A stretch of 36,690 nt of DNA, taken from the IMG/VR virus record IMGVR_UViG_3300045988_098479; one strand, written 5' to 3'. Each line of letters opens with the position of its first letter. Positions within the stretch are counted from its first letter, which is position 1. Made by a program: the position numbers and the translations under genes. The notes under the pieces were generated by a model that did no database searches, was not told where the DNA came from, and saw only the letters and a list, made by a program, of their open reading frames with translations. This document shows positions 4,459-16,753 of this stretch, in pieces. Origin of the DNA: a virus.

Positions 4459-4487
4459 GGCAGGAGAGCCGGGACGAAACGGAGATA

Positions 4488-5678
4488 ATGCCCGGGCAAC
4501 CCATAGGAGACATTATGGCACAGTCCGAACGCAAGCGAAGGCGGGCCGGCTCGTACCGCGAGGTCAGGCCGGGCGTCTGGGAGGTGAGGGCGAGCAAGGG
4601 GCGTCGCGCCGACGGCGGGCGCCGCACGGTTTCCCGCACGGTCGAGGGCAGCGAGCTCGACGCCGAGATAGAGGCCGCGCGCCTCGTGGCGGAGCTGGGC
4701 GGCGCGGCGAACCTCGGCGAGTCACTCACGCTCGAGCAGTTCTACTGGGGGATATTCAGGAAGTCGGACAGCAACCGGGGGAAGCCCCGCAGCGCGGCGA
4801 CGCTCAGGCAGTACGACTCCCAGATGGTGCGCAACGTCCTCCCCGCCATCGGGCACATACCGCTGTCCAAGCTCACGCACGGCGACATCAAGGCCGCGGT
4901 GCTGGCGTCGACGGCGCCGGCGCTCACCAAGCGGACGCTGCGCGCAGTGCTGCTGTCGGCATACGACGACGAGCTCATGGACGAGCGGCCGTTCCGGCGG
5001 CGCATAACCACGCCGCAGCGCAGGAAGCCGCAGCGCGCCCCGTGGACGGCGCAGGAGGCGGTAGCGGCGCTCGGGGCCATGAGGGGCCGCCCGCTGGAGG
5101 CGTACCTGATACTCGGCCTGTCGGGACTGCGCATGGAGGAGTCGCTCGGCATCTCCCCCGCCGACATCGTGCCCCAGGCGACCTACGACCTCGTGACCGG
5201 CACGGAGGTCCGCACGCTCACGCTCGTGGTCAGGCGGAAGTACACCGACGCCGACGGCCTGGTGGACGAGGCGAAGAACGAGGCGTCCGTGCGCGAGCGC
5301 CCCGCGATCGTGGCCGGGCGCGACCGGCTGCTCGCCATCGTCGCGGCGACGCGCCCCGACCCGGGCGACCCGACGGCCGTCGACGCCTGGCGCCGCTCGC
5401 GCCTCGTGCCCCTGCGCGGCGACACGCTCTACAAGAGGTGGAAGTCGGAGCTCGCGGCGCTGGGTCTGCGCTTCATCCCGCCGGACATGCTCCGGCACAC
5501 GTCCGAGACGCTGATGCAGGCCGCGGGCCTGCCCGACACGGTCACCTCGCGCTTCCACGGCCACGCGGAGCTCAAGACCGACTACGGCAACTACATGCGC
5601 CCCGGCGCGGCGACCATGGAGGACGCGGCGAGGAAAGTGCATAGACTGCTGTCGGGAGAGGACCCCAGTGGGGCGTAG
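4488..5678 (+). CDS. int: Tyrosine integrase (phage integrase family)
   Basis: Motifs LSGLRMEE (Arg), MLRHTSET (Arg) and FHGHAELKTDYGNY (His, Tyr) are present, together with an N-terminal SAM-like/arm-binding region. The gene is adjacent to attP. ATG 4515 (AGGAGA plus 5 nt) may be the true start. Confidence 0.85.
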   Translation: MPGQPIGDIMAQSERKRRRAGSYREVRPGVWEVRASKGRRADGGRRTVSRTVEGSELDAEIEAARLVAELGGAANLGESLTLEQFYWGIFRKSDSNRGKPRSAATLRQYDSQMVRNVLPAIGHIPLSKLTHGDIKAAVLASTAPALTKRTLRAVLLSAYDDELMDERPFRRRITTPQRRKPQRAPWTAQEAVAALGAMRGRPLEAYLILGLSGLRMEESLGISPADIVPQATYDLVTGTEVRTLTLVVRRKYTDADGLVDEAKNEASVRERPAIVAGRDRLLAIVAATRPDPGDPTAVDAWRRSRLVPLRGDTLYKRWKSELAALGLRFIPPDMLRHTSETLMQAAGLPDTVTSRFHGHAELKTDYGNYMRPGAATMEDAARKVHRLLSGEDPSGA

Positions 5679-6051: not shown

Positions 6052-7236
6052 CTAGCCCCTCTGGGCGTACGCGGCGCCCGATGCGGTGCCGACGGCGATC
6101 CAGCGCGTGTAGCCGGAATAGCTGGTATAGCGTCCCCATACGTAGCCGCCTGATGTCACGAACGTGCCATCGAGGTTGACGGTCTGGCCGCGATGGTAGC
6201 TGGCGACAACGCTGTAGCCGGTGCCCGCGCCGGAGCGAACGTTGAGCGTGTTCACCACGATGCGGTAGCGGCCGGCGGAACGGCCGGTGGATGCGGGGCG
6301 CGCCTGAGACGCGGCGGCGCCAACGCGAACGAGGTAGTCGTTCGGATCGTAGCCGCCGGTGGGCTTGCCGACAGCGACATAGCGGGTATAGCCGGAATAG
6401 CTGGTATATCGTCCCCAAACATAACCGTTCGAGACGCAATACCAATCGTCGAGCGTCACGGTCTGACCGTAGCCGTAGCCAGCCACAACAGCGCCGGACA
6501 TAGACGGCGCGGTACGCACGTTCAGGCGACTTGCGTTGCAGCGGTAGGTGCCGCCGAAGCCGGAGCCGGTCTTTGCAGTGGTGGTGGAAGATGCCACGGT
6601 GCCACCGTTTCCATCAGTCGGCGCGATAGGCGCGACATAGCCGCTGCCGAGGTAAGCTGCCACCGCCTGCTTGAACTCGTACCAAGTCTTGCCATAGGCG
6701 CGGAAATAACCGTTTGGGTCTGTATGGTCGGAACCGCCCCAGCGTTGGGCTGCTTCGTAGTGGCTTAGCAGGCGGGACGTATCCCAGCCATGGGCGCGAA
6801 GCTCATCGCCAGCCCACTTCACAGCTTCATTCCACTGCTTTGCGAAATCGGAAGCATTGGTGGCGTGGGCAAGCTCGATACCGATAGTGGCGTAGTTGCC
6901 ATTGCCAACATGCCAGCACAAGCGATTCTCGGGCACCGTGTTGTACACGGTGGAGCCGTCCAGCTCCATGACGTGATGCACGGCGTAGGTATCGTTGCGC
7001 GACCAAAGCAACGTGTGGTTGTAGGCAGACGCGCCGGGGTTCGCTGTCTCATGGATAACTAGGTAGCTCGCATTGAGATAGCCATGACCGTTGCTCACGT
7101 ACTTGTTCACGCTCTGGTAGGCTTCGGCGCTGAGCGGGGCGGCAAGCGCCGCCACAAGGGCGAGGACAACGGCGAAAACGCTGCGCATCGGCAGCTTGCG
7201 CTTAGCCTCGGCACTAGTCTCCGTCATGGTCGCCAC
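6052..7236 (-). CDS. Endolysin: signal peptide, N-acetylmuramoyl-L-alanine amidase (Amidase_2/PGRP-like), two SH3b-like repeats
   Basis: The N-terminus [23 protein letters not shown] looks like a Sec signal with an AxA site. The amidase block runs [11 protein letters not shown]...[17 protein letters not shown]...HTDP. The C-terminus has two 60-aa repeats. The start could instead be Met4 or Met17. Confidence 0.85.
6088..6546 (-). repeat. Two SH3b-like cell-wall-binding modules (coding tandem repeat)
   Basis: Residues 231-290 and 324-383 of the endolysin share YR...LNVR......G.VVA.Y..GQTV.LD......[15 protein letters not shown](Y/W)(V/I)AVG. Shared DNA stretches lie around 6108-6146 and 6383-6425. 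Confidence 0.85.
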
Positions 7237-7456: not shown

Positions 7457-7795
7457 CTAATCGAGTACGGGCATGTTCATCGCGTCCGTGTACAGGCGCG
7501 TGCCGGTACCGTTGCCGCCCAGCCCGTGATAGGCGGCGTAGACGCTCTCCAGGTGGCGGCGCTCCTCGACGGTCAGGCCGTCCTGTGCCATCGCCCTCTC
7601 ATGGATGCGCTGCAATTCGGCCCACAGCAGCGCGCGCATCCCGGCCTTCATGGCCTCTGACTCAACGCGCTCGCGTTCAGATTTCTCTGATACCTTCCGC
7701 CCCTGGGCCTTGACGGTGGCCACGACCGACGCGACGCACGTCGCCACGACGCACGAGACGATGTCGGTTATGACGATGGCCGCCAGTGATTCCAC
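7457..7795 (-). CDS. N-terminally membrane-anchored lysis-cassette protein (holin/antiholin-like accessory)
   Basis: GTG 7795 has GGAGGG upstream. A transmembrane segment LAAIVITDIVSCVVATCVASVVATV precedes a soluble domain containing YAAYHGLGGNGTGT. It is the first gene of the lysis block. Confidence 0.55.
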   Translation of the reverse strand: MESLAAIVITDIVSCVVATCVASVVATVKAQGRKVSEKSERERVESEAMKAGMRALLWAELQRIHERAMAQDGLTVEERRHLESVYAAYHGLGGNGTGTRLYTDAMNMPVLD

Positions 7796-7875
7796 GCTCG
7801 GCCCTCCTTTCCTCTCGCTTTCCGCGCCATCCTGCGGGCGGCGTGAGATTGAGCCTCGCCGCCGCTACACGCAAT

Positions 7876-7924
7876 AAATCCCAGACGTAACGCAGCGGGC
7901 TACCATGCGAAGCGTCTGGGATTT
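7876..7924. promoter_or_regulatory. 12-bp perfect inverted repeat AAATCCCAGACG / CGTCTGGGATTT bracketing the first ATG of the recombinase ORF
   Basis: Arms are at 7876-7887 and 7913-7924 with a 25-nt loop that contains ATG 7905. T-runs follow on both strands. Function unknown. Confidence 0.5.
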
Positions 7925-8813
7925 TCGAGAGATTGGACTGTTCAAAATGCTGTTTTCCGATGCCATCACCGAGTACATGGCCGACAAGGGCAAGCGTCTC
8001 CGCGCCACCACGCTGGAGGGCTACCGCAGCGCCATCCGCTGCCACCTGATGCCGCAGTGGGGTAAGCGCGAGATTGAGACGATCAGCTTTGAGGAGGTAC
8101 AAGATTGGGTCGATTCGTTCGCCCTACCAGGTGCCGCCGAGAAGGCGTACAAGACCTTCCGACAGATTTACCGCTGGGTGCTTCGCCGACATCAGCTGCG
8201 AATCTGGGACGTGACGCAAGGTGTGGAGCTGCCCCAAAAGCCGACCGCGCGCCGACCGACGCTCACTGCCGAGCAGGAGCGCGTGACGCTCAAGGCCATC
8301 GTCGGCCAGCCCTTCGAGGCCGCAGTCCTGCTCGGTGCCGCGCTGGGCCTGCGCCGCTGCGAGGCCTGCGCGGTGAGAATCGAGGATGTGGATTGGCGTA
8401 GCGGCTGGGTACATGTGCAGCGCGGCCTGCACGTGGTGGGCGGCGAGGTCATCGAGACCGGATGCAAGACCAAGCTGTCAGACCGCAAGCTGAAACTGCC
8501 GCGATTCGCGCTTGAGCGCTTGCGTGCCATCCGTGGGACGCGCAGGTCTGGTCGTCTGTGCCTGCTTGACCCAAACGCCGTCGCCCGCAAGTTCCGCGCG
8601 TTCTGCAAGCGGCTCGACCTGCCGCATGTGCCGATGACGTGCCTTCGCCACAGCTGGGCGACGATCTCGCTGGAGCACGGTGCAGCTATCGAGGACATAG
8701 CCGTGGCGCTCGGGCATTCGACCGTCAACACGGCGATGGCGCACTACCTGCAATCATTCCGCACGGTCGTGGCCAGGGCGAGCGATTCATACACGGCGGC
8801 GATGGAGATGTAG
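7905..8813 (+). CDS. Tyrosine recombinase (XerC/D- or Rci-like), candidate shufflon invertase
   Basis: An N-terminal SAM-like domain (ITEYMADKGKRLRATTLEGYRSAIRCHL) is present. Catalytic-type motifs are LGLRRCE (Arg), LRHSWAT (Arg), LGHS (His) and AMAHY (Tyr). The TAG stop 8811-8813 is part of repeat site 1. The alternative start ATG 7947 lies downstream of the inverted repeat. Confidence 0.85.
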   Translation: MRSVWDFREIGLFKMLFSDAITEYMADKGKRLRATTLEGYRSAIRCHLMPQWGKREIETISFEEVQDWVDSFALPGAAEKAYKTFRQIYRWVLRRHQLRIWDVTQGVELPQKPTARRPTLTAEQERVTLKAIVGQPFEAAVLLGAALGLRRCEACAVRIEDVDWRSGWVHVQRGLHVVGGEVIETGCKTKLSDRKLKLPRFALERLRAIRGTRRSGRLCLLDPNAVARKFRAFCKRLDLPHVPMTCLRHSWATISLEHGAAIEDIAVALGHSTVNTAMAHYLQSFRTVVARASDSYTAAMEM

Positions 8814-8828
8814 GGCATTCCGTATCAC
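8811..8828 (+). repeat. Shufflon site 1 (variant): TAGGGCATTCCGTATCAC
   Basis: The first 10 bp of the core, ATTCCGTATC, are conserved (8817-8826) and the last 2 bp are AC instead of CC. The TAG is the recombinase stop codon. Confidence 0.8.
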
Positions 8829-9118
8829 ACGCCTCGGGCAAGGTAGGGTCAGTATCCTATTTCAAAACAGCCGGCATTGTTATCGTGAGCTGCCTTTTCG
8901 TAAGGGTTACGATTAGTTCGTCGTGGGGAAGCGCGACAATCGGGAGGCTTCCGGAGGGGTTTCGGCCAGCCATCAGGGTCATAGCGCCAATCGCGAGCGA
9001 CTGGGCGAGCGGAAACATGTCCATCGACGCGAACGGAACGGTCACCATTAACGCCAATAACGACACGATCTCCACCGCCTCGTCCATCTCTTCCATCGCT
9101 GTATTTCCGGCGGCGTAG
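8819..9118 (+). CDS. Silent tail-fibre C-terminal cassette 1 (99 codons, no own start at the site)
   Basis: The frame TCC GTA TCA opens at the core of site 1 and runs to the TAG of site 2. The product begins SVSHASGKVGSVSYFKTAG... and ends ...SSIAVFPAA. Confidence 0.7.
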   Translation, partial: SVSHASGKVGSVSYFKTAGIVIVSCLFVRVTISSSWGSATIGRLPEGFRPAIRVIAPIASDWASGNMSIDANGTVTINANNDTISTASSISSIAVFPAA

Positions 9119-9131
9119 CATTCCGTATCCC
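9116..9131 (+). repeat. Shufflon site 2: TAGCATTCCGTATCCC
   Basis: Exact 16-mer. The TAG is the stop of cassette 1. Confidence 0.9.
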
Positions 9132-9400
9132 GTGCGCCGAGAGTTTTTGTCGGTAACAAGATCGTGAACTTTAACGATGCGAATTACACGATGCTTTGGG
9201 ACAAGGTGGGCTTTGAGCGGGAGTTCGGGCGAGGCTTCGACAATTCCCGCGATTCCGTGTACGCGATGAACGGTGATGCGAGCTACGACTTCATGGTTTC
9301 CGGCGTGAATTTCTACCCACGCGACGGGAACCTCGTCGTCGCAATCAGCGGCGCACACACTGGTCCATTCCGAGTGAATTACATCGTTGTGCTTGGCTAG
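9122..9400 (+). CDS. Silent tail-fibre C-terminal cassette 2 (92 codons)
   Basis: The frame opens at TCC GTA TCC of site 2 and ends at the TAG of site 3. The product begins SVSRAPRVFVGNKIVNFNDANYTMLW... The ORF-track GTG 9164 is internal. Confidence 0.75.
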   Translation, partial: SVSRAPRVFVGNKIVNFNDANYTMLWDKVGFEREFGRGFDNSRDSVYAMNGDASYDFMVSGVNFYPRDGNLVVAISGAHTGPFRVNYIVVLG

Positions 9401-9413
9401 CATTCCGTATCCC
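9398..9413 (+). repeat. Shufflon site 3: TAGCATTCCGTATCCC
   Basis: Exact 16-mer. The TAG is the stop of cassette 2. Confidence 0.9.
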
Positions 9414-9643
9414 ATCTCACCCATATCGAGGTCGTGTCAGGCCAAAGCGACGGCACCGTGACCGCGCCGACGGTCGCGGGCTACCGCTTCTTGTGCTGGG
9501 TGGCATGCGTGTCCGTCGGCTGGGTCGGTATCTGCTACATCGAGCATCCAACGAACACGACATCGAAAATCTGGTACGTCACGCAGCTGCAGAATAGCGG
9601 CGGCGGCAGGGTGGATTGCTTCGCGCTTTACGTGCATCAGTAG
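9404..9643 (+). CDS. Silent tail-fibre C-terminal cassette 3 (79 codons)
   Basis: The frame opens at site 3. The product begins SVSHLTHIEVVSGQSDGTVTAP... and ends ...CFALYVHQ with TAG 9641-9643. It converges on, and overlaps by 7 nt, the end of cassette 4. Confidence 0.75.
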   Translation, partial: SVSHLTHIEVVSGQSDGTVTAPTVAGYRFLCWVACVSVGWVGICYIEHPTNTTSKIWYVTQLQNSGGGRVDCFALYVHQ

Positions 9644-9981
9644 GGGCGCACTTCGAGCAGCCATGAGAATGGCGTGCTCTTGGCCCACCCAGCGTTCGGC
9701 TTGTTTTCCGTCTTGAAGTAGTACGTCTTACCAGCTTCCACGCCCGCGAATACGGCCTTGGCCGTAACCATGCGCTGGACGCCGTCGCTGCCGTTGAGGC
9801 CAGTCGATACCTCCGCCACGCTTTGCAGCCCGCTCGGTGTCACCACATGGAGGCCGATCTCGCCGCCCCATGCGCCGTACGTCTCATACGCCCACACCTG
9901 TGCGACGATTACGCCGCTCACCTTGGGAGTGAATGAGAATTCGGCGCTTGAAGATGCGAAATACTCGGTCTGGGATACGGA
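9637..9981 (-). CDS. Silent tail-fibre C-terminal cassette 4 (114 codons)
   Basis: The frame opens at site 4. The product begins SVSQTEYFASSSAEFSFTPKVSGVIVAQVW... and ends ...SWLLEVRPY with TGA 9637-9639. Confidence 0.75.
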   Translation of the reverse strand, partial: SVSQTEYFASSSAEFSFTPKVSGVIVAQVWAYETYGAWGGEIGLHVVTPSGLQSVAEVSTGLNGSDGVQRMVTAKAVFAGVEAGKTYYFKTENKPNAGWAKSTPFSWLLEVRPY

Positions 9982-9987
9982 ATGCTA
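9972..9987 (-). repeat. Shufflon site 4: TAGCATTCCGTATCCC (minus orientation)
   Basis: The plus strand reads GGGATACGGAATGCTA. The TAG is the stop of cassette 5. Confidence 0.9.
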
Positions 9988-10314
9988 GCCGATAGCCCAC
10001 GAGCAGGCGCCCCTGTTTAAGGCTCCGGGCGTCGCGTTGGCGACCTTGAAGCCGACCGTGCCGTCATTGCCGACAAAGCAATATGCGCAGACATTGAGAA
10101 CGTAGCCGTCGTTGTTCGTCGCGCACCCCGGTGTGTAGATGTTGCCAGCGGGCCGCAGCTCTTCAGGGATGCGTTTGTCCACCTGCCAATATTCAGCAGT
10201 CGGCTGGATGACGCTCCAACTGAGCATACAGATGCGCCCGATGCGCCGCACGTAGATGTAAGACGGCTTGTCCGGTCCTCCGTATAGCACAATCGGGTCG
10301 CCGTGGGATACGGA
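9985..10314 (-). CDS. Silent tail-fibre C-terminal cassette 5 (109 codons)
   Basis: The frame opens at site 5. The product begins SVSHGDPIVLYGGPDKPSYIYVRR, contains KRIPEELRPAGNIY and ends CSWAIG. The stop is the TAG of site 4. Confidence 0.75.
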   Translation of the reverse strand, partial: SVSHGDPIVLYGGPDKPSYIYVRRIGRICMLSWSVIQPTAEYWQVDKRIPEELRPAGNIYTPGCATNNDGYVLNVCAYCFVGNDGTVGFKVANATPGALNRGACSWAIG

Positions 10315-10318
10315 ATCA
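10305..10318 (-). repeat. Shufflon site 5 (variant): TGATTCCGTATCCC (minus orientation)
   Basis: The 12-bp core is exact. The 5-prime flank is TGA (stop of cassette 6) instead of TAGC. Confidence 0.85.
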
Positions 10319-10615
10319 CATGCCGATGGGGTAGCTCAGCGAGGCGAAGTGGTTCCGATGGTCCGTCTTGCCGCCCATGCTATGCACTATGATGGTGCCG
10401 TCTGACATGACGAGCAGGCGGTACGAGTTGTCCACGCCTCCGTACTCGGTGACCATCGCCGCAGACCAGGCATGGGAGGGCCGCAGCTCCTCGGGAATGA
10501 CGTACGGACACTTGATGCCCTCAGCAGGATCAGCGATGATCTGCGTGGCGCGGACGTAGACCGTCATGCCCACGCGCACGACGCTCCAGTTTTTCGCCTC
10601 GTACAGGGATACGGA
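10316..10615 (-). CDS. Silent tail-fibre C-terminal cassette 6 (99 codons)
   Basis: The frame opens at site 6. The product begins SVSLYEAKNWSVVRVGMTVYV, contains YVIPEELRPSHAW and ends LSYPIGM. The stop is the TGA in site 5. It shares the IPEELRP motif with cassette 5. Confidence 0.75.
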   Translation of the reverse strand, partial: SVSLYEAKNWSVVRVGMTVYVRATQIIADPAEGIKCPYVIPEELRPSHAWSAAMVTEYGGVDNSYRLLVMSDGTIIVHSMGGKTDHRNHFASLSYPIGM

Positions 10616-10621
10616 ATGCTA
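10606..10621 (-). repeat. Shufflon site 6: TAGCATTCCGTATCCC (minus orientation)
   Basis: Exact 16-mer. The TAG is the stop of cassette 7. Confidence 0.9.
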
Positions 10622-10921
10622 CTCGAAATCGATAGCGACGATTTGAATGTTGACTCGTGCATAAATTCCCCTCGTGCCGCCCTCGATGTCCACCCAGAAG
10701 TTCCCTGAACTCCAATAAGCAAGATTGATTACATCGAACGCATTAGCAGTAATATCACCGTTAAACACTTGGACGATGTCGAAGCCGTTGAAGTCGCGGC
10801 CCACCAGATTCTTGTACTCGTCTTTGGTGATCGCGAGAAGCCTTCCGGAGGCATCCCATTGTGTGCCGGGGCGGACGATGGACGTGAAGAACTGACGTAT
10901 GCGCGGCGCCCGGGATACGGA
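10619..10921 (-). CDS. Silent tail-fibre C-terminal cassette 7 (100 codons)
   Basis: The frame opens at site 7. The product begins SVSRAPRIRQFFTSIVRPGTQWD... and ends ...NIQIVAIDFE. The stop is the TAG of site 6. It shares the SVSRAPR start with cassette 2 and is visibly AT-richer. Confidence 0.75.
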   Translation of the reverse strand, partial: SVSRAPRIRQFFTSIVRPGTQWDASGRLLAITKDEYKNLVGRDFNGFDIVQVFNGDITANAFDVINLAYWSSGNFWVDIEGGTRGIYARVNIQIVAIDFE

Positions 10922-10927
10922 ATGCTA
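10912..10927 (-). repeat. Shufflon site 7: TAGCATTCCGTATCCC (minus orientation)
   Basis: Exact 16-mer. The TAG is the stop of cassette 8. Confidence 0.9.
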
Positions 10928-11179
10928 GAGCTGGAAGGCAAACCAGACAATGTCAGTCGTTACCGCCTTCTTTGGTTCAGTCTCGTTGTAAACCCGAATC
11001 TTAAAGCCTGTCGGCGTGAGGCTGTGCGAGCTTAGCGACACTTGCGTCCAATACATCGGGATTCCGCCTCTTGACAGCATAACGGCGTAGTCGCCAGCAT
11101 ACGGCTTGTCGAAAGTGACATCTTTATCGATGTATTCGGTGGCGATCGTCGCGGTCAGCTTGCCCCGTCGGGATACGGA
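10925..11179 (-). CDS. Silent tail-fibre C-terminal cassette 8 (84 codons)
   Basis: Translated codon by codon: it begins SVSRRGKLTATIATEYIDKDVTFDKPYAGDYAVML... and ends ...TTDIVWFAFQL. The stop is the TAG of site 7. It is absent from the ORF track because it has no start codon. Confidence 0.75.
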   Translation of the reverse strand, partial: SVSRRGKLTATIATEYIDKDVTFDKPYAGDYAVMLSRGGIPMYWTQVSLSSHSLTPTGFKIRVYNETEPKKAVTTDIVWFAFQL

Positions 11180-11185
11180 ATGCTA
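11170..11185 (-). repeat. Shufflon site 8: TAGCATTCCGTATCCC (minus orientation)
   Basis: Exact 16-mer. The TAG is the stop of the currently expressed tail-fibre gene. Confidence 0.9.
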
Positions 11186-11998
11186 CAGGGGAATAAAGCC
11201 CATGGCCGAGGGCCATCCGAAACCGCGCATCGGCTCTGAAGAGGACACATCGAACATCGCGTCACCGTTGGTCTGAACCCTTAGCGCCACCCCAAATTTG
11301 AGCTGCATGTTTGCGCAGATGCACACGATCCGCTCATTGGTAGGCAGATAATTTGAAGGCAGCGTGAGCACCTTGGCCGAATAGCCGGTCTGAGTCCCGG
11401 TGGTCATGTAGCCGCTGCCTTTCGTCTCAAAAACAAGTGAGTGTATGGCGGGAATGTAGGAGACATCCAGAGTTGCGTCGCAGCCGTAGATATTCGCTCT
11501 GCCGCTGGCGATCTTCATTCGGGATACGGAATCCCCGAGGGTCGCGAGCGAGGCCACGGGGTCGAAGAGCCTCACGGGCGTGCCGGCGTTGATTCCATTC
11601 AGCGGCACGCGCCACAGCTTCAAGTCGTTCGCCGTCACCTTTGGGTCTGCGGCGGTACCCGTTGTGGGCGTGCCTTTGATTACGACGGGCGTGATGGATT
11701 CGATGCCCGCACTCGTCTTTGCGTAGCGCGCGACCACCAGGTCGTTGCGCTTCTGGCCTTGCGTACCAGATTGGATGGTCAAGCCAGTAGCCGCCTGGTT
11801 CCAGAAGCGCTTGCCGCCGACCATGCCCACGCCGGTGCCGAGCGTCGCTGAGTTCGCGCTCTGCATCGTCAGCTCGAAGTCGTCGCCGTACTCCAGCACG
11901 CAGTCGGCCCTGCCGACCGTCGCGGTGTTGAGCGCGGCCAGGTCGTCCGAGCTGATGTGCTTCGTGCCGGTCATTCCGTCCACTATCTCGAATGCCAT
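11183..11998 (-). CDS. Tail fibre / receptor-binding protein (constant N-terminal 156 aa plus currently expressed cassette 9)
   Basis: ATG 11998 has AAGGAG upstream. It is the last structural gene after the Dit/Tal/Zn-ribbon genes. The shufflon core lies at codons 157-160 and the stop is the TAG of site 8. Confidence 0.8.
   Translation of the reverse strand: MAFEIVDGMTGTKHISSDDLAALNTATVGRADCVLEYGDDFELTMQSANSATLGTGVGMVGGKRFWNQAATGLTIQSGTQGQKRNDLVVARYAKTSAGIESITPVVIKGTPTTGTAADPKVTANDLKLWRVPLNGINAGTPVRLFDPVASLATLGDSVSRMKIASGRANIYGCDATLDVSYIPAIHSLVFETKGSGYMTTGTQTGYSAKVLTLPSNYLPTNERIVCICANMQLKFGVALRVQTNGDAMFDVSSSEPMRGFGWPSAMGFIPL
11521..11532 (-). repeat. Shufflon site 9 (expression site) inside the tail-fibre gene: ATTCCGTATCCC
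   Basis: Exact 12-bp core, encoding (D)SVS(R) at codons 156-160 of the fibre. Its 5-prime flank is the constant region rather than TAGC. Confidence 0.9.
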
Positions 11999-11999
11999 G

Positions 12000-12233
12000 C
12001 TACTGCTCCTTCGCGTTGCTCATGAACTGTTGGAACTCGCCGTCGTGCTTGGCGGCGAGCTTCTTGTACTCGTCCGTGCACCCCTTGCACAGCAGGCGGG
12101 TCGCCCTGCTGCCGTACTGATCGAAGCGCTCGACCTCGCGCCAGTCCCCCGCCGCCGCAGCGCCTTGCTGCAGGTACGCGCTCTCGCCGCAGCGGTCGCA
12201 TGTGTACTTCGTGATGTTGTCTGTCTTGGACAT
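12000..12233 (-). CDS. Small CxxC...CxxC zinc-ribbon-like protein (77 aa)
   Basis: ATG 12233 has GAGGAGA upstream. The product contains YTCDRCGESAY...LLCKGCTDEY. It lies between Tal and the fibre. The remainder of ORF 12000..12572 is overprinted on Tal and is rejected. Confidence 0.6.
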   Translation of the reverse strand: MSKTDNITKYTCDRCGESAYLQQGAAAAGDWREVERFDQYGSRATRLLCKGCTDEYKKLAAKHDGEFQQFMSNAKEQ

Positions 12234-12244
12234 GCCTGTCTCCT

Positions 12245-13723
12245 CTACTTCGTCCTGAGCCACGTGTACGGGCCGATGCTCGGCACCATCCGCCATTCGC
12301 CGCCGTAGTCGGACGGGTCGTAGCCCTTCGTCTCGATGTAGGTGCCGACCGGGTGAGACGCCTCGAACATCTCCCTGACGGTCACCGCCGACGCGGTGCC
12401 GGGCGGCCCTTGCTCGCCGCGCTCGCCCTTCTCGCCGCGCTCGCCCTTCTCGCCGCGCGGGATGCCGAGCGAGAGCGTCTTGATCAGGCTCTCGCCCGCG
12501 AGAGCCGCCGTGGCGTTCGCGCCCGGCGGCAGCGTCTGGACCGCGCCGATCTCCAACGAGGCGCCTGCCCACGTCTGCACGGCTTTGGTCGCGTCCCTGC
12601 GGGCGGCCTCGGCGGTGCCGCGCACCTCAGTGAGCGCATCTGCGTCAACCTCCGCGCTGAATGTGTAGTTGCTCAGCGTCAGGCCTTTGCCGGCCAGGTA
12701 CGCGTGCCCGCCGCCTCCGCTGCCGCTGCCGCTGCTCTCGGCGACTCCGCTGCTGCTCATCTTGGTCGTGGTCTCGCCGCCGACCTCGTATGAGTACACG
12801 GCAACGCCGCGCGAGACCTTCACGATCTTCTTCGCTACCGTCGCGTTCACGGTGCGCCCGTGCGCGTTGTCGCGCGCCGAGATCATGTCTCCCACGTCCA
12901 CGTCGATATCGTCGTGGGTCGCAACCTCGACGCTGCCTTGGGTCTGATACTCTTGCAGCTTCTTGCGGCCCTCCTCCTCCAGCTTCGCCTCATCGGCGTT
13001 GCTGTAGTCGTAGAGCGCGCATATCTCGTCGACGCCGAAGAGGCTCTGGACGTGGCTGACGTTGCCCGCCGCGTCGGCGTAGAAGTGGACTACCGCGCGG
13101 TTCTCCAATTCGCCAGTTCCCGCGCAAACCAAATGGTTCACGCAGCGGTAGACAGACGTGAGCGTGAAATCCATAAGGTCGGAATCGACCTTATTCGCGT
13201 AGTCCACTATCGGCGGCAGCGACAGCTCGACCTTGCCGCCGAGGCGGCGCATCGAGACCTTTCGCCCGTTCGCCTTCGCCAGGGCCTTCAGGCCGCCGTA
13301 CCCGTCCGCGAAGCGGTCGATGGTGTAGCTGACCGCCGTATCGTCTACGGCGGCTGAAAACAGCCCGGACAGCCCCATGCGGGATATGAGGGACGCGACC
13401 ACCTCGCCCGCCTTGCCGCTCACTGCGAGGTAGCCGCTGCCCGAATCGGGCAGGAGGCGCTTGCCGGCCAGGATGCCGTGCCACGTGCGGCCCTTGCACA
13501 GGACGGTGCCGGAGGCGTCCCTGCCCGTATCGTAGGTGACCTCGTCGACGACGCCGCCGTACTCGGTCCCGTCGATGAATACGAATTGCCCCTCGGCGGG
13601 GGCCTCGCCGGCGCGCGCCTCGAGCTTCAGGGCGTTCTCGTCGCTGCCGAACGCGAGGTCGAGCTCGAATTCCTCGATCTCGCGGACGTCCCCGGCCGCC
13701 GGGTCGCTCACCACTAGGACCAT
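12245..13723 (-). CDS. Tail-associated (Tal / siphovirus Gp37-like) baseplate protein with a collagen-like Gly-X-Y stretch
   Basis: ATG 13723 overlaps the Dit stop. The gene is immediately after Dit. The product is 492 aa, with RGEKGERGEKGERGEQGPPG near the C-terminus. Confidence 0.7.
   Translation of the reverse strand: MVLVVSDPAAGDVREIEEFELDLAFGSDENALKLEARAGEAPAEGQFVFIDGTEYGGVVDEVTYDTGRDASGTVLCKGRTWHGILAGKRLLPDSGSGYLAVSGKAGEVVASLISRMGLSGLFSAAVDDTAVSYTIDRFADGYGGLKALAKANGRKVSMRRLGGKVELSLPPIVDYANKVDSDLMDFTLTSVYRCVNHLVCAGTGELENRAVVHFYADAAGNVSHVQSLFGVDEICALYDYSNADEAKLEEEGRKKLQEYQTQGSVEVATHDDIDVDVGDMISARDNAHGRTVNATVAKKIVKVSRGVAVYSYEVGGETTTKMSSSGVAESSGSGSGGGGHAYLAGKGLTLSNYTFSAEVDADALTEVRGTAEAARRDATKAVQTWAGASLEIGAVQTLPPGANATAALAGESLIKTLSLGIPRGEKGERGEKGERGEQGPPGTASAVTVREMFEASHPVGTYIETKGYDPSDYGGEWRMVPSIGPYTWLRTK
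12398..12463 (-). repeat. Collagen-like Gly-X-Y coding repeat (tandem 18-bp units)
   Basis: GEKGER is duplicated at the DNA level (cgccgcgctcgcccttct occurs twice on the plus strand). Confidence 0.8.
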
Positions 13724-14529
13724 GCCGGCTCCCCCTCCTCCTCGTAGAGCGTCAGGTCGAACCCGAAGCTGTTGTCCCACGAGACCTCGCAGGTGCCGGC
13801 CGGCACGCGCTCGAAGATGTACTCGCCCGAGCCGGCGCCGCTGCCTCGGTGCGCCTTGCCGAAGGCGTCGCGGACGTCGCCGTCTGCGGAGACCACGGAG
13901 ACGGTGCGCCGCAGCGGGTCGACCTCCATGTAGCCGCCGTCCGGCACCGATACGTCGACCTGGTACAGGTTCTCGCCGAGCCGGACCGCGGGATTGACCG
14001 CCGGCCCGTAGACGATGAACCGGGCGGGGCTGCCGGAATGCCCCGGGTTGCGCGCGTACCGCTTCGGCGGGGTCGCCCCGAGGTCATACGGGAGGTCATG
14101 CGGTAGGTCGAGGAACTCGTACCCGGACGAGCCCATGACGGGCGTGAACTCCGTCGTGACGCCCCTGCGCCACAGGCCGTCGAGCAGCACGACGGTGATC
14201 TTCGCGGTGAAGAGCCCGTCCCGCACCCCGTCGACCTTCGACGCGAGGACGAAGCAGCGCTGGAACCACAACCCGACCCTCAGCGTCCCGGGCGTGTTGC
14301 CCGAGACGTCGAGGTCCGCGCAGCGGCGGAACTCGTCGGCCAGCGCCATGTCGGCGAAGACCGCCCTGAACGAGGCCTTGCGGGCGCCGCGCGAGACGGT
14401 CGACAGCGCACGGTACCCGATCTTGTAGTCCCATTCGCGGCTGAAGAGGTCGTTCGGCGTGCCGACGTAGATGCCGGAATTGAGCGGGATGACCGCCCCC
14501 GCGCCCGATTCATATTCGATATCAGGCAT
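13714..14529 (-). CDS. Distal tail protein (Dit)
   Basis: ATG 14529 overlaps the TMP stop by 8 nt. The product is 271 aa and the gene sits in the canonical position directly after the tape measure gene. Confidence 0.7.
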   Translation of the reverse strand: MPDIEYESGAGAVIPLNSGIYVGTPNDLFSREWDYKIGYRALSTVSRGARKASFRAVFADMALADEFRRCADLDVSGNTPGTLRVGLWFQRCFVLASKVDGVRDGLFTAKITVVLLDGLWRRGVTTEFTPVMGSSGYEFLDLPHDLPYDLGATPPKRYARNPGHSGSPARFIVYGPAVNPAVRLGENLYQVDVSVPDGGYMEVDPLRRTVSVVSADGDVRDAFGKAHRGSGAGSGEYIFERVPAGTCEVSWDNSFGFDLTLYEEEGEPAWS

Positions 14530-16753
14530 ACGCGACCGCCTTCCTCGCCCTGCGCCCGAACTCCGACTCGCCCATGACGGGCGTGAACTCCGCGATGATG
14601 GAGGGCAGGTTCTCGGCCAGCCAGCCGATAACGGCCGACGCGCCGCCGTCCGCGACAACGCCCTCCCCGGTGCCGGAAATGGTCCGGTCGCCGTAACGCG
14701 GGCCGTCGGCCCTGACCGTCGCATCGAACGCCGCGGCGCGCTCGACCTTCCCGACGGCGGACTCCATTGACTTCACGGGCTCGTCCGCCGTGTCGTCGAT
14801 GCCGAGGGCCGCGCCCTGCATCACGTAGCCGAATATCTTGCGGAACACGCGCGAGGGCGAGTGGATGCCGAGCAGGTTCTTGGCTGCGTCGATGGCGCCG
14901 CCGACCACGCCGGTTATCTTGTTGACGACCACGCCGGCCGCGCCGCTGATTCCGTTTGCGATGCCCTGCACGATATTGCGGCCGATCGACACCACGCGGC
15001 CCGGCAAGCTAAGGAAGGCGGACTCGATGTTCGACGCGATGCGTAGCGCCGCGCCCTTCACTGCACCGACTGCGCCCGAGATGGCGCCCTGCAGGTTGTA
15101 CATGGCAACCTTGCCGAGGTTCGACAGCGTCGACGGCAGGTTCTGGATGGCGTCGCGGATGGCGGACACGATGTTGGTGCCGCACGTGCTGACGAAGCCG
15201 GCCATGCCGGCGATGCCGTTGCCCAGGAGCGTGATGGCGTTGCGGCCGAGGCTTATCCAGTCGAGAGCTGACCATGCCGCGAGTATTGCCGAGAAGATGG
15301 CCGGGATGTTCGCGATGAGCGTCGGTATCGCCTGCACGATGCCGAGCGCCAGCGTCACGATTGCCTGGATGCCGGCGCCCAGCAGCGTCGGCGCGTTGTC
15401 GTTGATCGCGTCGGCGAGGTTCTGCACGATGACCGGGGCCTGCTCGATGATGGTCGGCAGGCTGTCGGCGATACCCTGCGCCAGGCCGACTATGAGGTTC
15501 GCCGCGCCCTCGGCAAGAACGCCCGCGTTCTCGGCTATGGACTCTGAGAGGCCGGTGAGAATCTGCAGGCCGCTCTCCATGATGGAGGGAAGGTTCTCGG
15601 ACAGGTAGCCGCCGAGTTGGCTCATGATGTCGGCCGCCGCGCCGGAGAGGAACGACAGGCCGTTCACGATACCGTCGTAGAGCACCGGTCCGACCTGCGC
15701 GCCTATCTCGTCCAACCCGCCGAAGGCGCCCGAGAGCGCCGACATGGCGCTGTCGGCGATGGACATGAAGGCCTCGCCGGCGACCGGCGCCAGCGTCGCT
15801 ATGACCCCGGGGAGCTGCTCGACGGCCGTGGACACGATGGTCGCCACGCGCGGCACGATGTTGGAGGCCGCCGTCTCGACCGACTCGACCAGCTCGGTCG
15901 TGAGCTTGCCCATGTCGGCGTCGTCCTTGCCGAGCTCCGTCACCCAGTTCTCCCACGCGGCCTTGGCCATGTTGCAGGAGCCCTCGATGGTCGTCGCGGC
16001 CTCACGCGAGGTCGTGCCGGCGATCTGCATCTGCTCCTGCATCGTATGGATGGCGAGCACGATGTTGTCGAAGGACAGGCTCGACTCGTCCACGGCGGAG
16101 TTGACCGCGTGCGCGTCCGAGATGAGGCGCTGCATCTCCTCCTTGGTGCCGCCGTATCCCAGCTTCAAGTTGTCGAGCATGGTGTAGTTCTGTTTCGCAA
16201 ATCCCTGGTACGCGTTCTGGAGGTCCTCCATCGCCGTGCCGAAGGTGTTCGCGTTGTCGCTCATGTCGACCATTGCCGTGTCGGCGTACTCGGCGGCCTT
16301 GACCGTGTCGCCGCCGAGCGATTTGACGAGCGAGGCGGAGAAGCCCGTCACCTGCTCCATGTACCGGTTGGCGCTCAGGCCGGCCGTTATGTAGGCGCGG
16401 TCGGCATTTGCCAGCACCGTCGTCTGTGCCTGCTCGAGCTGCTGCCACTTGCCGGAGCACTGCTCGACGGTCTGGCCGGTCATGGCGGCGTAGTCCTCTA
16501 GGGACTTGCCCATGTTGCCGAAAATCTTCTGGATGCCGCCGACGTTCTGCTCGTACGCGGCGTAGGCGTTCATGCTCATGCCGGTCACCGCCGCGACGCC
16601 GGCAGCCACCGCCGTTACTCCGGCCGCGACAAGCGATGCGGCCGCGGCCGCCGCCTTGCCGAGCTTTCCCTCGATGCCGCCGGCGATGCCGTCGACCTTG
16701 CCGGATGCCTGGTCGTCGACGCCGATCTTGACCAAGAGATCGAGAAGGTCCAT
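14522..16753 (-). CDS. Tape measure protein
   Basis: The product is 743 aa, Ala/Gly/Ile-rich with repetitive helical and hydrophobic segments. Its ATG lies directly after the stop of the GT chaperone extension. Confidence 0.9.
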   Translation of the reverse strand: MDLLDLLVKIGVDDQASGKVDGIAGGIEGKLGKAAAAAASLVAAGVTAVAAGVAAVTGMSMNAYAAYEQNVGGIQKIFGNMGKSLEDYAAMTGQTVEQCSGKWQQLEQAQTTVLANADRAYITAGLSANRYMEQVTGFSASLVKSLGGDTVKAAEYADTAMVDMSDNANTFGTAMEDLQNAYQGFAKQNYTMLDNLKLGYGGTKEEMQRLISDAHAVNSAVDESSLSFDNIVLAIHTMQEQMQIAGTTSREAATTIEGSCNMAKAAWENWVTELGKDDADMGKLTTELVESVETAASNIVPRVATIVSTAVEQLPGVIATLAPVAGEAFMSIADSAMSALSGAFGGLDEIGAQVGPVLYDGIVNGLSFLSGAAADIMSQLGGYLSENLPSIMESGLQILTGLSESIAENAGVLAEGAANLIVGLAQGIADSLPTIIEQAPVIVQNLADAINDNAPTLLGAGIQAIVTLALGIVQAIPTLIANIPAIFSAILAAWSALDWISLGRNAITLLGNGIAGMAGFVSTCGTNIVSAIRDAIQNLPSTLSNLGKVAMYNLQGAISGAVGAVKGAALRIASNIESAFLSLPGRVVSIGRNIVQGIANGISGAAGVVVNKITGVVGGAIDAAKNLLGIHSPSRVFRKIFGYVMQGAALGIDDTADEPVKSMESAVGKVERAAAFDATVRADGPRYGDRTISGTGEGVVADGGASAVIGWLAENLPSIIAEFTPVMGESEFGRRARKAVAYA

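Follow-up and report, generated by a model that had tools for sequence, protein, structure and literature searches.

The IMG/VR virus record IMGVR_UViG_3300045988_098479, a stretch of 36,690 nucleotides (nt) that was analysed at its full length and is referred to below as the window, is a siphovirus-like prophage. Next to its tail genes lies a candidate shufflon of the Rin type, in which nine copies of a short repeat, each followed by an open cassette, extend from the end of a tyrosine recombinase gene, rin, into the gene for a tail protein of 271 amino acids (aa) (Table 1). Rin shufflons were defined in prophages of Bifidobacterium as consisting of a tyrosine invertase gene rin, variable Rv cassettes, a constant Rc part, and 11-base pair (bp) rix sites, and inversions at the rix sites were observed in reads (Mavrich et al., 2018; PMC6109161). 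They have also been described in clade 1 prophages of Eggerthella lenta, where the repeat is the 8-bp sequence 5'-ttccgtat-3' (Buttimer et al., 2022; PMC8778435). Given these descriptions the type itself is already known; what is new here is a host genus that is unreported in the searched literature, the interval of strand exchange, the asymmetric build of the sites, the spread of sizes and topologies among the arrays, the inversion distances between isoforms, and evidence that cassettes are exchanged between phages.

Repeats, cassettes, and the point of strand exchange

The 10-mer ATTCCGTATC is present in exactly nine copies in the window, where 0.05 would be expected, and none of 100 shuffled versions reached nine. 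Three copies lie on the plus strand (starting at 8817, 9120, and 9402) and six on the minus strand (9974–9983, 10307–10316, 10608–10617, 10914–10923, 11172–11181, and 11523–11532). These positions bear out two proposals of an earlier, sequence-only reading of the window, namely that all plus-oriented sites lie to the left of all minus-oriented sites and that five silent sites are direct repeats of the expression site, which is the one located within the tail gene. That reading described the array correctly but placed it at 9116–11532, an extent that has to be corrected because site 1 (8815–8828) belongs to the array and falls outside it. In the reading frame, the sites have the form xAT TCC GTA TCx and encode (H/D)-S-V-S.

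All nine sites lead into an open cassette of 80–116 codons in the site frame, in agreement with the proposal that the silent cassettes are retained as open frames. In seven of the nine, the stop codon directly adjoins the next site (TAG followed by CATTCC, or TGA followed by TTCC at 10316–10318), and the TAG stop of rin (8811–8813) likewise adjoins site 1. The other two cassettes form a convergent pair at which the plus and minus sets meet. As had been predicted, the two sets overlap at 9637–9643 when reading frames are counted with their stops included, the minus-strand stop being TGA (TCA, 9637–9639) and the plus-strand stop TAG (9641–9643).

For comparison, 138 related loci were taken from genomes, metagenomes, and IMG/VR; individual loci are cited by their L numbers. 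The consensus drawn from 494 distinct site contexts is (T/G)(A/G)G-N-A-TTCCGTAT-CCC, and outside this consensus there is no conservation. The two kinds of site differ in their left arms. The expression site GGGGATTCCGTATCCC comes close to a palindrome (GGGAT-TCCGT-ATCCC), and its left arm is the same in all 53 relatives used as complete arrays, a feature that was also the criterion by which those relatives were picked. In the silent sites, conservation extends over the core and the right-hand CCC while the left arm is degenerate, most often TAGCA, and includes the stop codon of the preceding cassette.

The position of exchange can be read from a comparison of loci. Positions −8 to −1 track the left context and positions +9 to +15 track the cassette, which places the exchange within the 8-bp core TTCCGTAT. 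The overlap region of tyrosine recombinases is typically 6–8 bp, and an 8-bp exchange interval fits this range. Core variants occur in concert across whole arrays: TTCTGTAT in L016, L059, L068, and L089, TTCCCTAT in L027, and TTCCGTAA in the array of the Bifidobacterium phage PMBT6 (L142, 5336–6363). Such concerted change is expected if partner sites all need identical overlap regions, and it suggests that the sites of one array co-evolve, along with their recombinase.

Table 1. Positions of the recombinase gene, sites, cassettes, and tail gene in the window.
Feature	Position	Strand	Remarks
Hairpin resembling a bidirectional terminator	7876..7924	.	A-rich tract before, T-tract after; dG −29.9 kcal/mol, z = −5.6
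rin, tyrosine recombinase (putative shufflon invertase)	7905..8813 (likely true start ATG 7947)	+	Pfam Phage_integrase and Phage_int_SAM_3
Site 1 (GCATTCCGTATCAC)	8815..8828	+	Beside rin
Silent cassette c50	8829..9118	+	100 codons from site; open in site frame
Site 2	9118..9131	+	10-mer match
Silent cassette c51	9132..9400	+	Open in site frame
Site 3	9400..9413	+	10-mer match
Silent cassette c110	9414..9643	+	Plus half of the central convergent pair
Silent cassette c81	9637..9971	-	Minus half of the central pair; overlaps the plus half at 9637–9643
Site 4	9972..9985	-	10-mer match
Silent cassette c24	9985..10304	-	Open in site frame
Site 5 (TGATTCCGTATCCC)	10305..10318	-	Stop before site is TGA
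Silent cassette c20	10316..10605	-	Open in site frame
Site 6	10606..10619	-	10-mer match
Silent cassette c82	10619..10911	-	Open in site frame
Site 7	10912..10925	-	10-mer match
Silent cassette c83	10925..11169	-	Open in site frame
Site 8	11170..11183	-	Immediately 3' of the stop codon of the expressed gene
Cassette c84, expressed at present	11183..11520	-	Residues 160–271 of the tail protein
Site 9, expression site	11521..11534	-	Inside the 271-aa gene 11183–11998; context GGGGATTCCGTATCCC, near-palindrome, encodes G-D-S-V-S
Constant N-terminal part (Rc) of the putative receptor-binding tail protein	11535..11998	-	PHROG matches including tail protein and virion structural protein

The cassettes of the window are mutually dissimilar, with no two falling into one cluster, and the silent ones have homologues of the same length in related loci. 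Homologues of four of them occupy the expressed position elsewhere (c50 in L031 and L144, c51 in L032, c20 in L143, and c82 in L020). Full-length proteins on record also carry cassettes that are 91–98% identical to those of the window, joined at residue 160 to a constant part that is 91–96% identical; P0052 contains a cassette 98% identical to c50 and P0096 one 97% identical to c20, each fused at residue 160, and P0040 contains one that is 91% identical to c51. For the more diverged cassette pairs, the ratio of nonsynonymous to synonymous substitution rates (dN/dS) is 0.2–0.4, with values of ∼0.4 for c50, 0.29 for c82, and 0.39 for c24 in comparison with a 90% identical cassette of L019; nearly identical pairs are uninformative. 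These ratios, together with the occupation of the expressed position in relatives, argue for purifying selection on the silent cassettes. The G+C content of the array (8750–11450) is 52–60%, below the 62–74% of the flanking tail and lysis genes. In L143, two inter-cassette stops at 4485–5070 (flipped orientation) are mutated, TAG to TGG and TAG to CAG, so that three cassettes form a single open frame of 310 codons; if the fused site were expressed, the protein would read through into the next cassettes.

The tail protein has 2085 homologues, many of which have residues 1–160 in common and diverge thereafter, and a Caudoviricetes sp. assembly includes the identical 271-aa protein under the accession DAL46897.1. 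In an AlphaFold2 model, residues 160–271 form an all-beta domain (predicted local distance difference test [pLDDT] score >90) that begins directly after the site and its DSVS linker; the constant N-terminal part is modelled poorly in the monomer. A structure search with this model gave no match at E ≤ 0.001, and the best match, to adenovirus fibre knobs, is not significant (E ∼0.01). Cassette c81 has a Pfam match to the MSP1_barrel jelly-roll (29.8 bits with a cut-off of 27.8), and c83 has a weak H-type lectin match (E = 0.004) that falls under the Pfam cut-off. By sequence and model, the cassettes appear to be alternative C-termini of a tail receptor-binding protein, with the receptor-binding function itself weakly suggested.

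Arrangements of the array and the predicted recombinase

In order to enumerate the arrangements open to such an array, we modelled it as a signed permutation in which any plus site may recombine with any minus site and followed all legal inversions by breadth-first search. The number of reachable arrangements is 80,640 (= 7! × 8 × 2), encoding only nine proteins. The order of plus sites followed by minus sites is closed under inversion, and the search returned the path lengths that had been deduced from the site map, with the three plus cassettes one inversion away from expression and the five silent minus cassettes two. As no site lies between its two cassettes, the convergent pair is fixed at the convergence point in all 80,640 arrangements.

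The related loci include 46 distinct complete arrays, and the order of plus and then minus sites is found in 43 of these. Rearrangements between relatives are inversions that end at the repeats, and pairs of isoforms were identified at distances of one, two, five, and six inversions. L090/L092 and L091 are one inversion apart, between the outermost sites; L124/L063 and L123 are two apart; L032 and L144 are five apart, with the flip of a spacer included; and L004, a complete chromosome, and L051 have 12 cassette types in common and are six apart. Central pairs stay together across loci, either flipped or unflipped, as seen for c9 with c15 and for c18 with c11. L143, with which the window has seven of its nine cassette types in common, retains the central pair of c81 and c110 but in flipped orientation relative to the window.

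Not all relatives have a single convergence point. Three complete arrays and several partial ones consist of two modules, with back-to-back sites 15–40 nt apart and two convergence points (L032 2735–2775, L144, L062 4453–4481, L136 4143–4171, L076 4138–4153, and L105 1924–1939). These loci include the closest relatives of the window (Rin 97–99% identical). The single-convergence topology thus holds for the window and not for the whole family. A further 32 related contigs break off within the array, often 10–12, 53, or 125 nt past a site (e.g., L001, L003, L010, L014, L022, L043, and L117). Contig ends of this kind, including those in the isolate genome L001, are expected if mixed isoforms in one sample branch the assembly graph at the sites. 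L001 carries the first 38 residues of c81, 100% identical, in plus orientation directly after rin, at which point the contig ends.

Rin is composed of the SAM-like and catalytic domains of Xer-type recombinases. It lacks an arm-binding N-terminal domain and ends ∼20 aa past the catalytic Tyr. Its best sequence matches in the PDB are XerC-like, XerA, and XerD proteins, which cover residues 106–280 of 302. The start codon is more likely to be ATG 7947 than ATG 7905, as the latter sits in a hairpin loop and is ATT in many relatives. In alignments of Rin to XerA and XerC-like proteins, the motif VPMTCLRHSWAT (8630–8650) appears to have the first His of the usual H-x-x-R catalytic motif replaced (T-C-L-R). 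Proteins 88–98% identical to Rin occur almost only in Collinsella genomes; one relative at 80% identity is in an Eggerthella genome (L024), and another in an isolate labelled Olsenella uli. The host is thus probably of Collinsella type, judging from sequence; no link between Collinsella and shufflons was found in the searched literature.

Taken together, these features suggest a mechanism for the locus. Rin would recombine any plus site with any minus site and invert the DNA in between. Strand exchange would take place inside the 8-bp core TTCCGTAT, such that each site would keep its left arm and exchange the cassette on its right. At the expression site (11521–11534), the constant N-terminal part of 156 residues would be joined, via the linker (D)SVS, to the cassette that happens to follow, and the 80,640 DNA arrangements would yield nine versions of the C-terminal receptor-binding domain. 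We consider it quite likely, with a probability of roughly 0.85, that 7905–11998 constitutes a Rin-type shufflon, carried by a siphovirus-like prophage of a Collinsella-type host, that switches the C-terminal domain of the tail protein among nine versions. Rin is presumably the enzyme, and the cassettes presumably set host range, with inversion presumably favoured over deletion. We infer that this copy is active because its parts are intact and its relatives show isoforms.

Deletion, loss of activity, and other readings of the array

The sequence-only reading had also held that deletion must be suppressed, either by an inversion-biased enzyme or through selection against deletants, an argument that we regard as reasonable but unproven. 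The same question, of how deletion between direct rix sites is avoided, was raised for Rin by Mavrich et al. (2018; PMC6109161). In the R64 shufflon, site asymmetry limits the recombinase Rci to inversions, symmetric sites also permit excision, and an extra C-terminal domain of Rci has been implicated (PMC11852207). Rin does not have this domain, and any bias must therefore arise otherwise, perhaps from the asymmetry of its sites.

Alternatively, Rin could be devoid of intrinsic bias and, like Cre, resolve direct repeats no less readily than it inverts inverted ones, in which case deletants would be outcompeted and lost cassettes regained from other phages. Array contents among close relatives are compatible with such losses. 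The number of sites ranges from 2 to 17; L011 and L047 contain subsets of the 12 cassettes of L004; and an L144-type array would turn into the four-site array of L031, clean site junctions included, through a single inversion and a single deletion between direct sites. Gains are likewise plausible, as cassettes that are 99–100% identical stand beside rin genes that are only 82–86% identical (e.g., L004 10176(−) vs L061 7204(+), and L006 vs L056), which indicates that cassettes or whole arrays move between phage lineages. The absence from Rin of the C-terminal domain that is tied to the inversion-only behaviour of Rci (PMC11852207) is also consistent with an unbiased enzyme. Nevertheless, arrays with up to 16 direct-orientation sites persist, including that of the isolate genome L006, and those with 9–16 such sites are found intact in isolate and complete genomes (e.g., L006 and L004). 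Moreover, the silent sites, whose left arm is degenerate and whose right arm is conserved, have the type of asymmetry that blocks recombination of direct repeats in R64 (PMC11852207). The apparent subset arrays may be assembly shortcuts through mixed isoforms; we rejected L011, L047, and L031 as proof of deletion, since all of their junctions are also possible in an inversion-only mixture and could be joined by a short-read assembler. We consider a wholly unbiased Rin unlikely. An intermediate behaviour, which we propose only tentatively and think doubtful, is that Rin sites also occasionally excise and capture cassette circles, which would make the arrays integron-like platforms for the exchange of receptor-binding domains among co-resident Coriobacteriia phages; the inversion bias would then be strong but incomplete and would come from site asymmetry alone, without a C-terminal domain of the Rci type.

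Several observations weigh against a nine-way switch that operates in this phage. Three contigs that were assembled separately (L139–L141) match the window at 100% identity throughout the array and show a single arrangement, so that no inversion is documented for the exact phage. Searches for identical copies of Rin and of the tail protein yielded nothing but loci with this arrangement (further contigs encoding these proteins were collapsed as similar places), and the eight predicted alternative fusion proteins have no exact record among 15 billion proteins. Most array structures of relatives were derived from short-read assemblies, in which shufflons can be joined wrongly, and the matches that point to receptor binding are weak (fold E ∼0.01, and one Pfam hit just over the cut-off).

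The uniform arrangement in three assemblies and the lack of recorded alternative fusions would also be accounted for if the array were a frozen relic in which sites and cassettes remain and shuffling has stopped or become too rare to matter. Relatives that look like inactivated, frozen arrays do exist: in L026/L086, L132/L135, and L137/L138, rin is truncated (residues 1–246, 1–206, or 1–112) and only minus sites are left. In the window, however, rin has its full length, the nine cores do not differ at any of their 10 nt, and every cassette is an open frame. Of the three assemblies, at least two are from one project (names starting LIUW16-1), and consensus assemblies give only the majority isoform. 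A relic is improbable, and an active shufflon remains our preferred reading of the locus.

The repeats might also be nothing but a conserved coding motif (H/D-S-V-S) that opens tandemly duplicated small genes, as their in-frame position at the start of every cassette would allow, but we reject this as extremely improbable because the identity is at the nucleotide level and includes wobble positions while the cassettes have no detectable mutual similarity, exact inversions occur at these points between relatives, core variants shift in concert across whole arrays, and an upstream gene body that could supply a start exists for the last minus cassette only. A serine-invertase switch is ruled out because the adjacent enzyme belongs to the tyrosine family, and a diversity-generating retroelement by recombinase family and site anatomy. 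An integron is ruled out because integron-integrase models score 46.7 bits with a cut-off of 265 and because the cassettes are gene fragments in both orientations that lack attC-like structured sites.

Known systems, genome setting, and implications

A close parallel to the window is offered by the shufflon of clade 1 prophages in E. lenta, in which the core is likewise ttccgtat and small Rv cassettes stand in tandem next to the gene for a tyrosine recombinase (PMC8778435). As in the window, one repeat lies within the large Rc gene and one just past the Rc stop, and some cassettes have H-type lectin matches. The two differ in host, which here is probably of Collinsella type, and the Rin of the Eggerthella locus L024 is 80% identical to that of the window. 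The Bifidobacterium prophages Bb423phi1, Bl157phi1, and Bl30698phi1 (PMC6109161) and phage PMBT6 likewise have the order rin, Rv cassettes, Rc and an armless Xer-like recombinase. Their rix cores are TTCCCTAACCC in the three prophages and TTCCGTAACCC in PMBT6, compared with TTCCGTATCCC in the window, and they contain at most five cassettes, whereas there are nine in the window and up to 17 in its relatives. The homology of Rin to the Bifidobacterium proteins was assessed with the PMBT6 recombinase; this protein, annotated as an 'integrase', is 39% identical to Rin over 90% of the length and adjoins an array of four sites with the core TTCCGTAACCC.

More distant systems achieve a similar outcome. 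In the R64/IncI shufflon (Rci, sfx, PilV), multiple inversions by a tyrosine recombinase choose among alternative C-termini of an adhesin, and the number of segments varies between plasmids (PMC5430464), as the number of sites does in Rin arrays. The sfx sites resemble those of the window in being asymmetric, as conservation covers the core and only one of the arms and the other arm is variable, but the conserved right arm is 12 bp long in sfx and 3 bp (CCC) in the window. R64 sites also alternate in orientation, in contrast to the one plus block and one minus block of the window, and Rci has an extra C-terminal domain that Rin does not have. A tblastn search with Rin gave no match among the plasmid records listed at E ≤ 1e-8. 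Min of p15B, Gin of Mu, and Cin of P1 likewise invert the C-terminal part of a phage tail fibre gene and change host range, with Min catalysing multiple inversions; they are serine invertases that need an enhancer and Fis and in which inversion is enforced by topology, whereas Rin belongs to the tyrosine family. A blastn search of 7800–12300 against GenBank phages gave no match, and there is thus no annotated near relative among them.

The array lies between the tail genes and the lysis genes of the minus strand. The terminase, portal, and head genes are followed by the genes for the tape measure protein (14522–16753), minor tail proteins (12245–13780), and the 271-aa tail protein (11183–11998); beyond the array and rin, the strand continues with a 112-aa gene, a holin-like gene, and an amidase endolysin (6052–7236), after which come a strong terminator (5949–5922) and a separate integrase gene (4488–5678). 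Upstream of the shufflon target gene, an 18-nt tandem repeat at 12398–12458 in the minor tail gene 12245–13780 (minus strand) encodes collagen-like G-E-K-G-E-R.

The hairpin at 7876–7924 has the likely start of rin (ATG 7947) on one side and the lysis block, beginning at 7795, on the other. The outer stem of the hairpin shows essentially no variation over 66 distinct relatives, and for this reason a covariation test found no compensatory pairs. The element looks like a bidirectional intrinsic terminator and may keep the expression of rin low. The presence of a conserved terminator-like hairpin between rin and the lysis genes leans towards a separate promoter for the lysis block, which the sequence-only reading had offered as the alternative to late transcripts that traverse the array. 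A scan for promoters and terminators detected no sigma-70-like promoter, and no convincing minus-strand terminator inside the array, although such a scan is uninformative for a high-GC actinobacterial host.

By means of a Rin shufflon, one temperate gut phage could present nine receptor-binding tips, and its relatives up to 17, which bears on host range and on the dynamics between phages and bacteria in the human gut. Since shufflon regions are often mis-assembled or break contigs, recognising them improves the annotation of metagenomic phages. Rin arrays are a possible source of small multiplex inversion tools for synthetic biology, and the natural arrays found here provide good material for learning by what means a Xer-like recombinase that has no arm-binding domain avoids the deletion of direct repeats.

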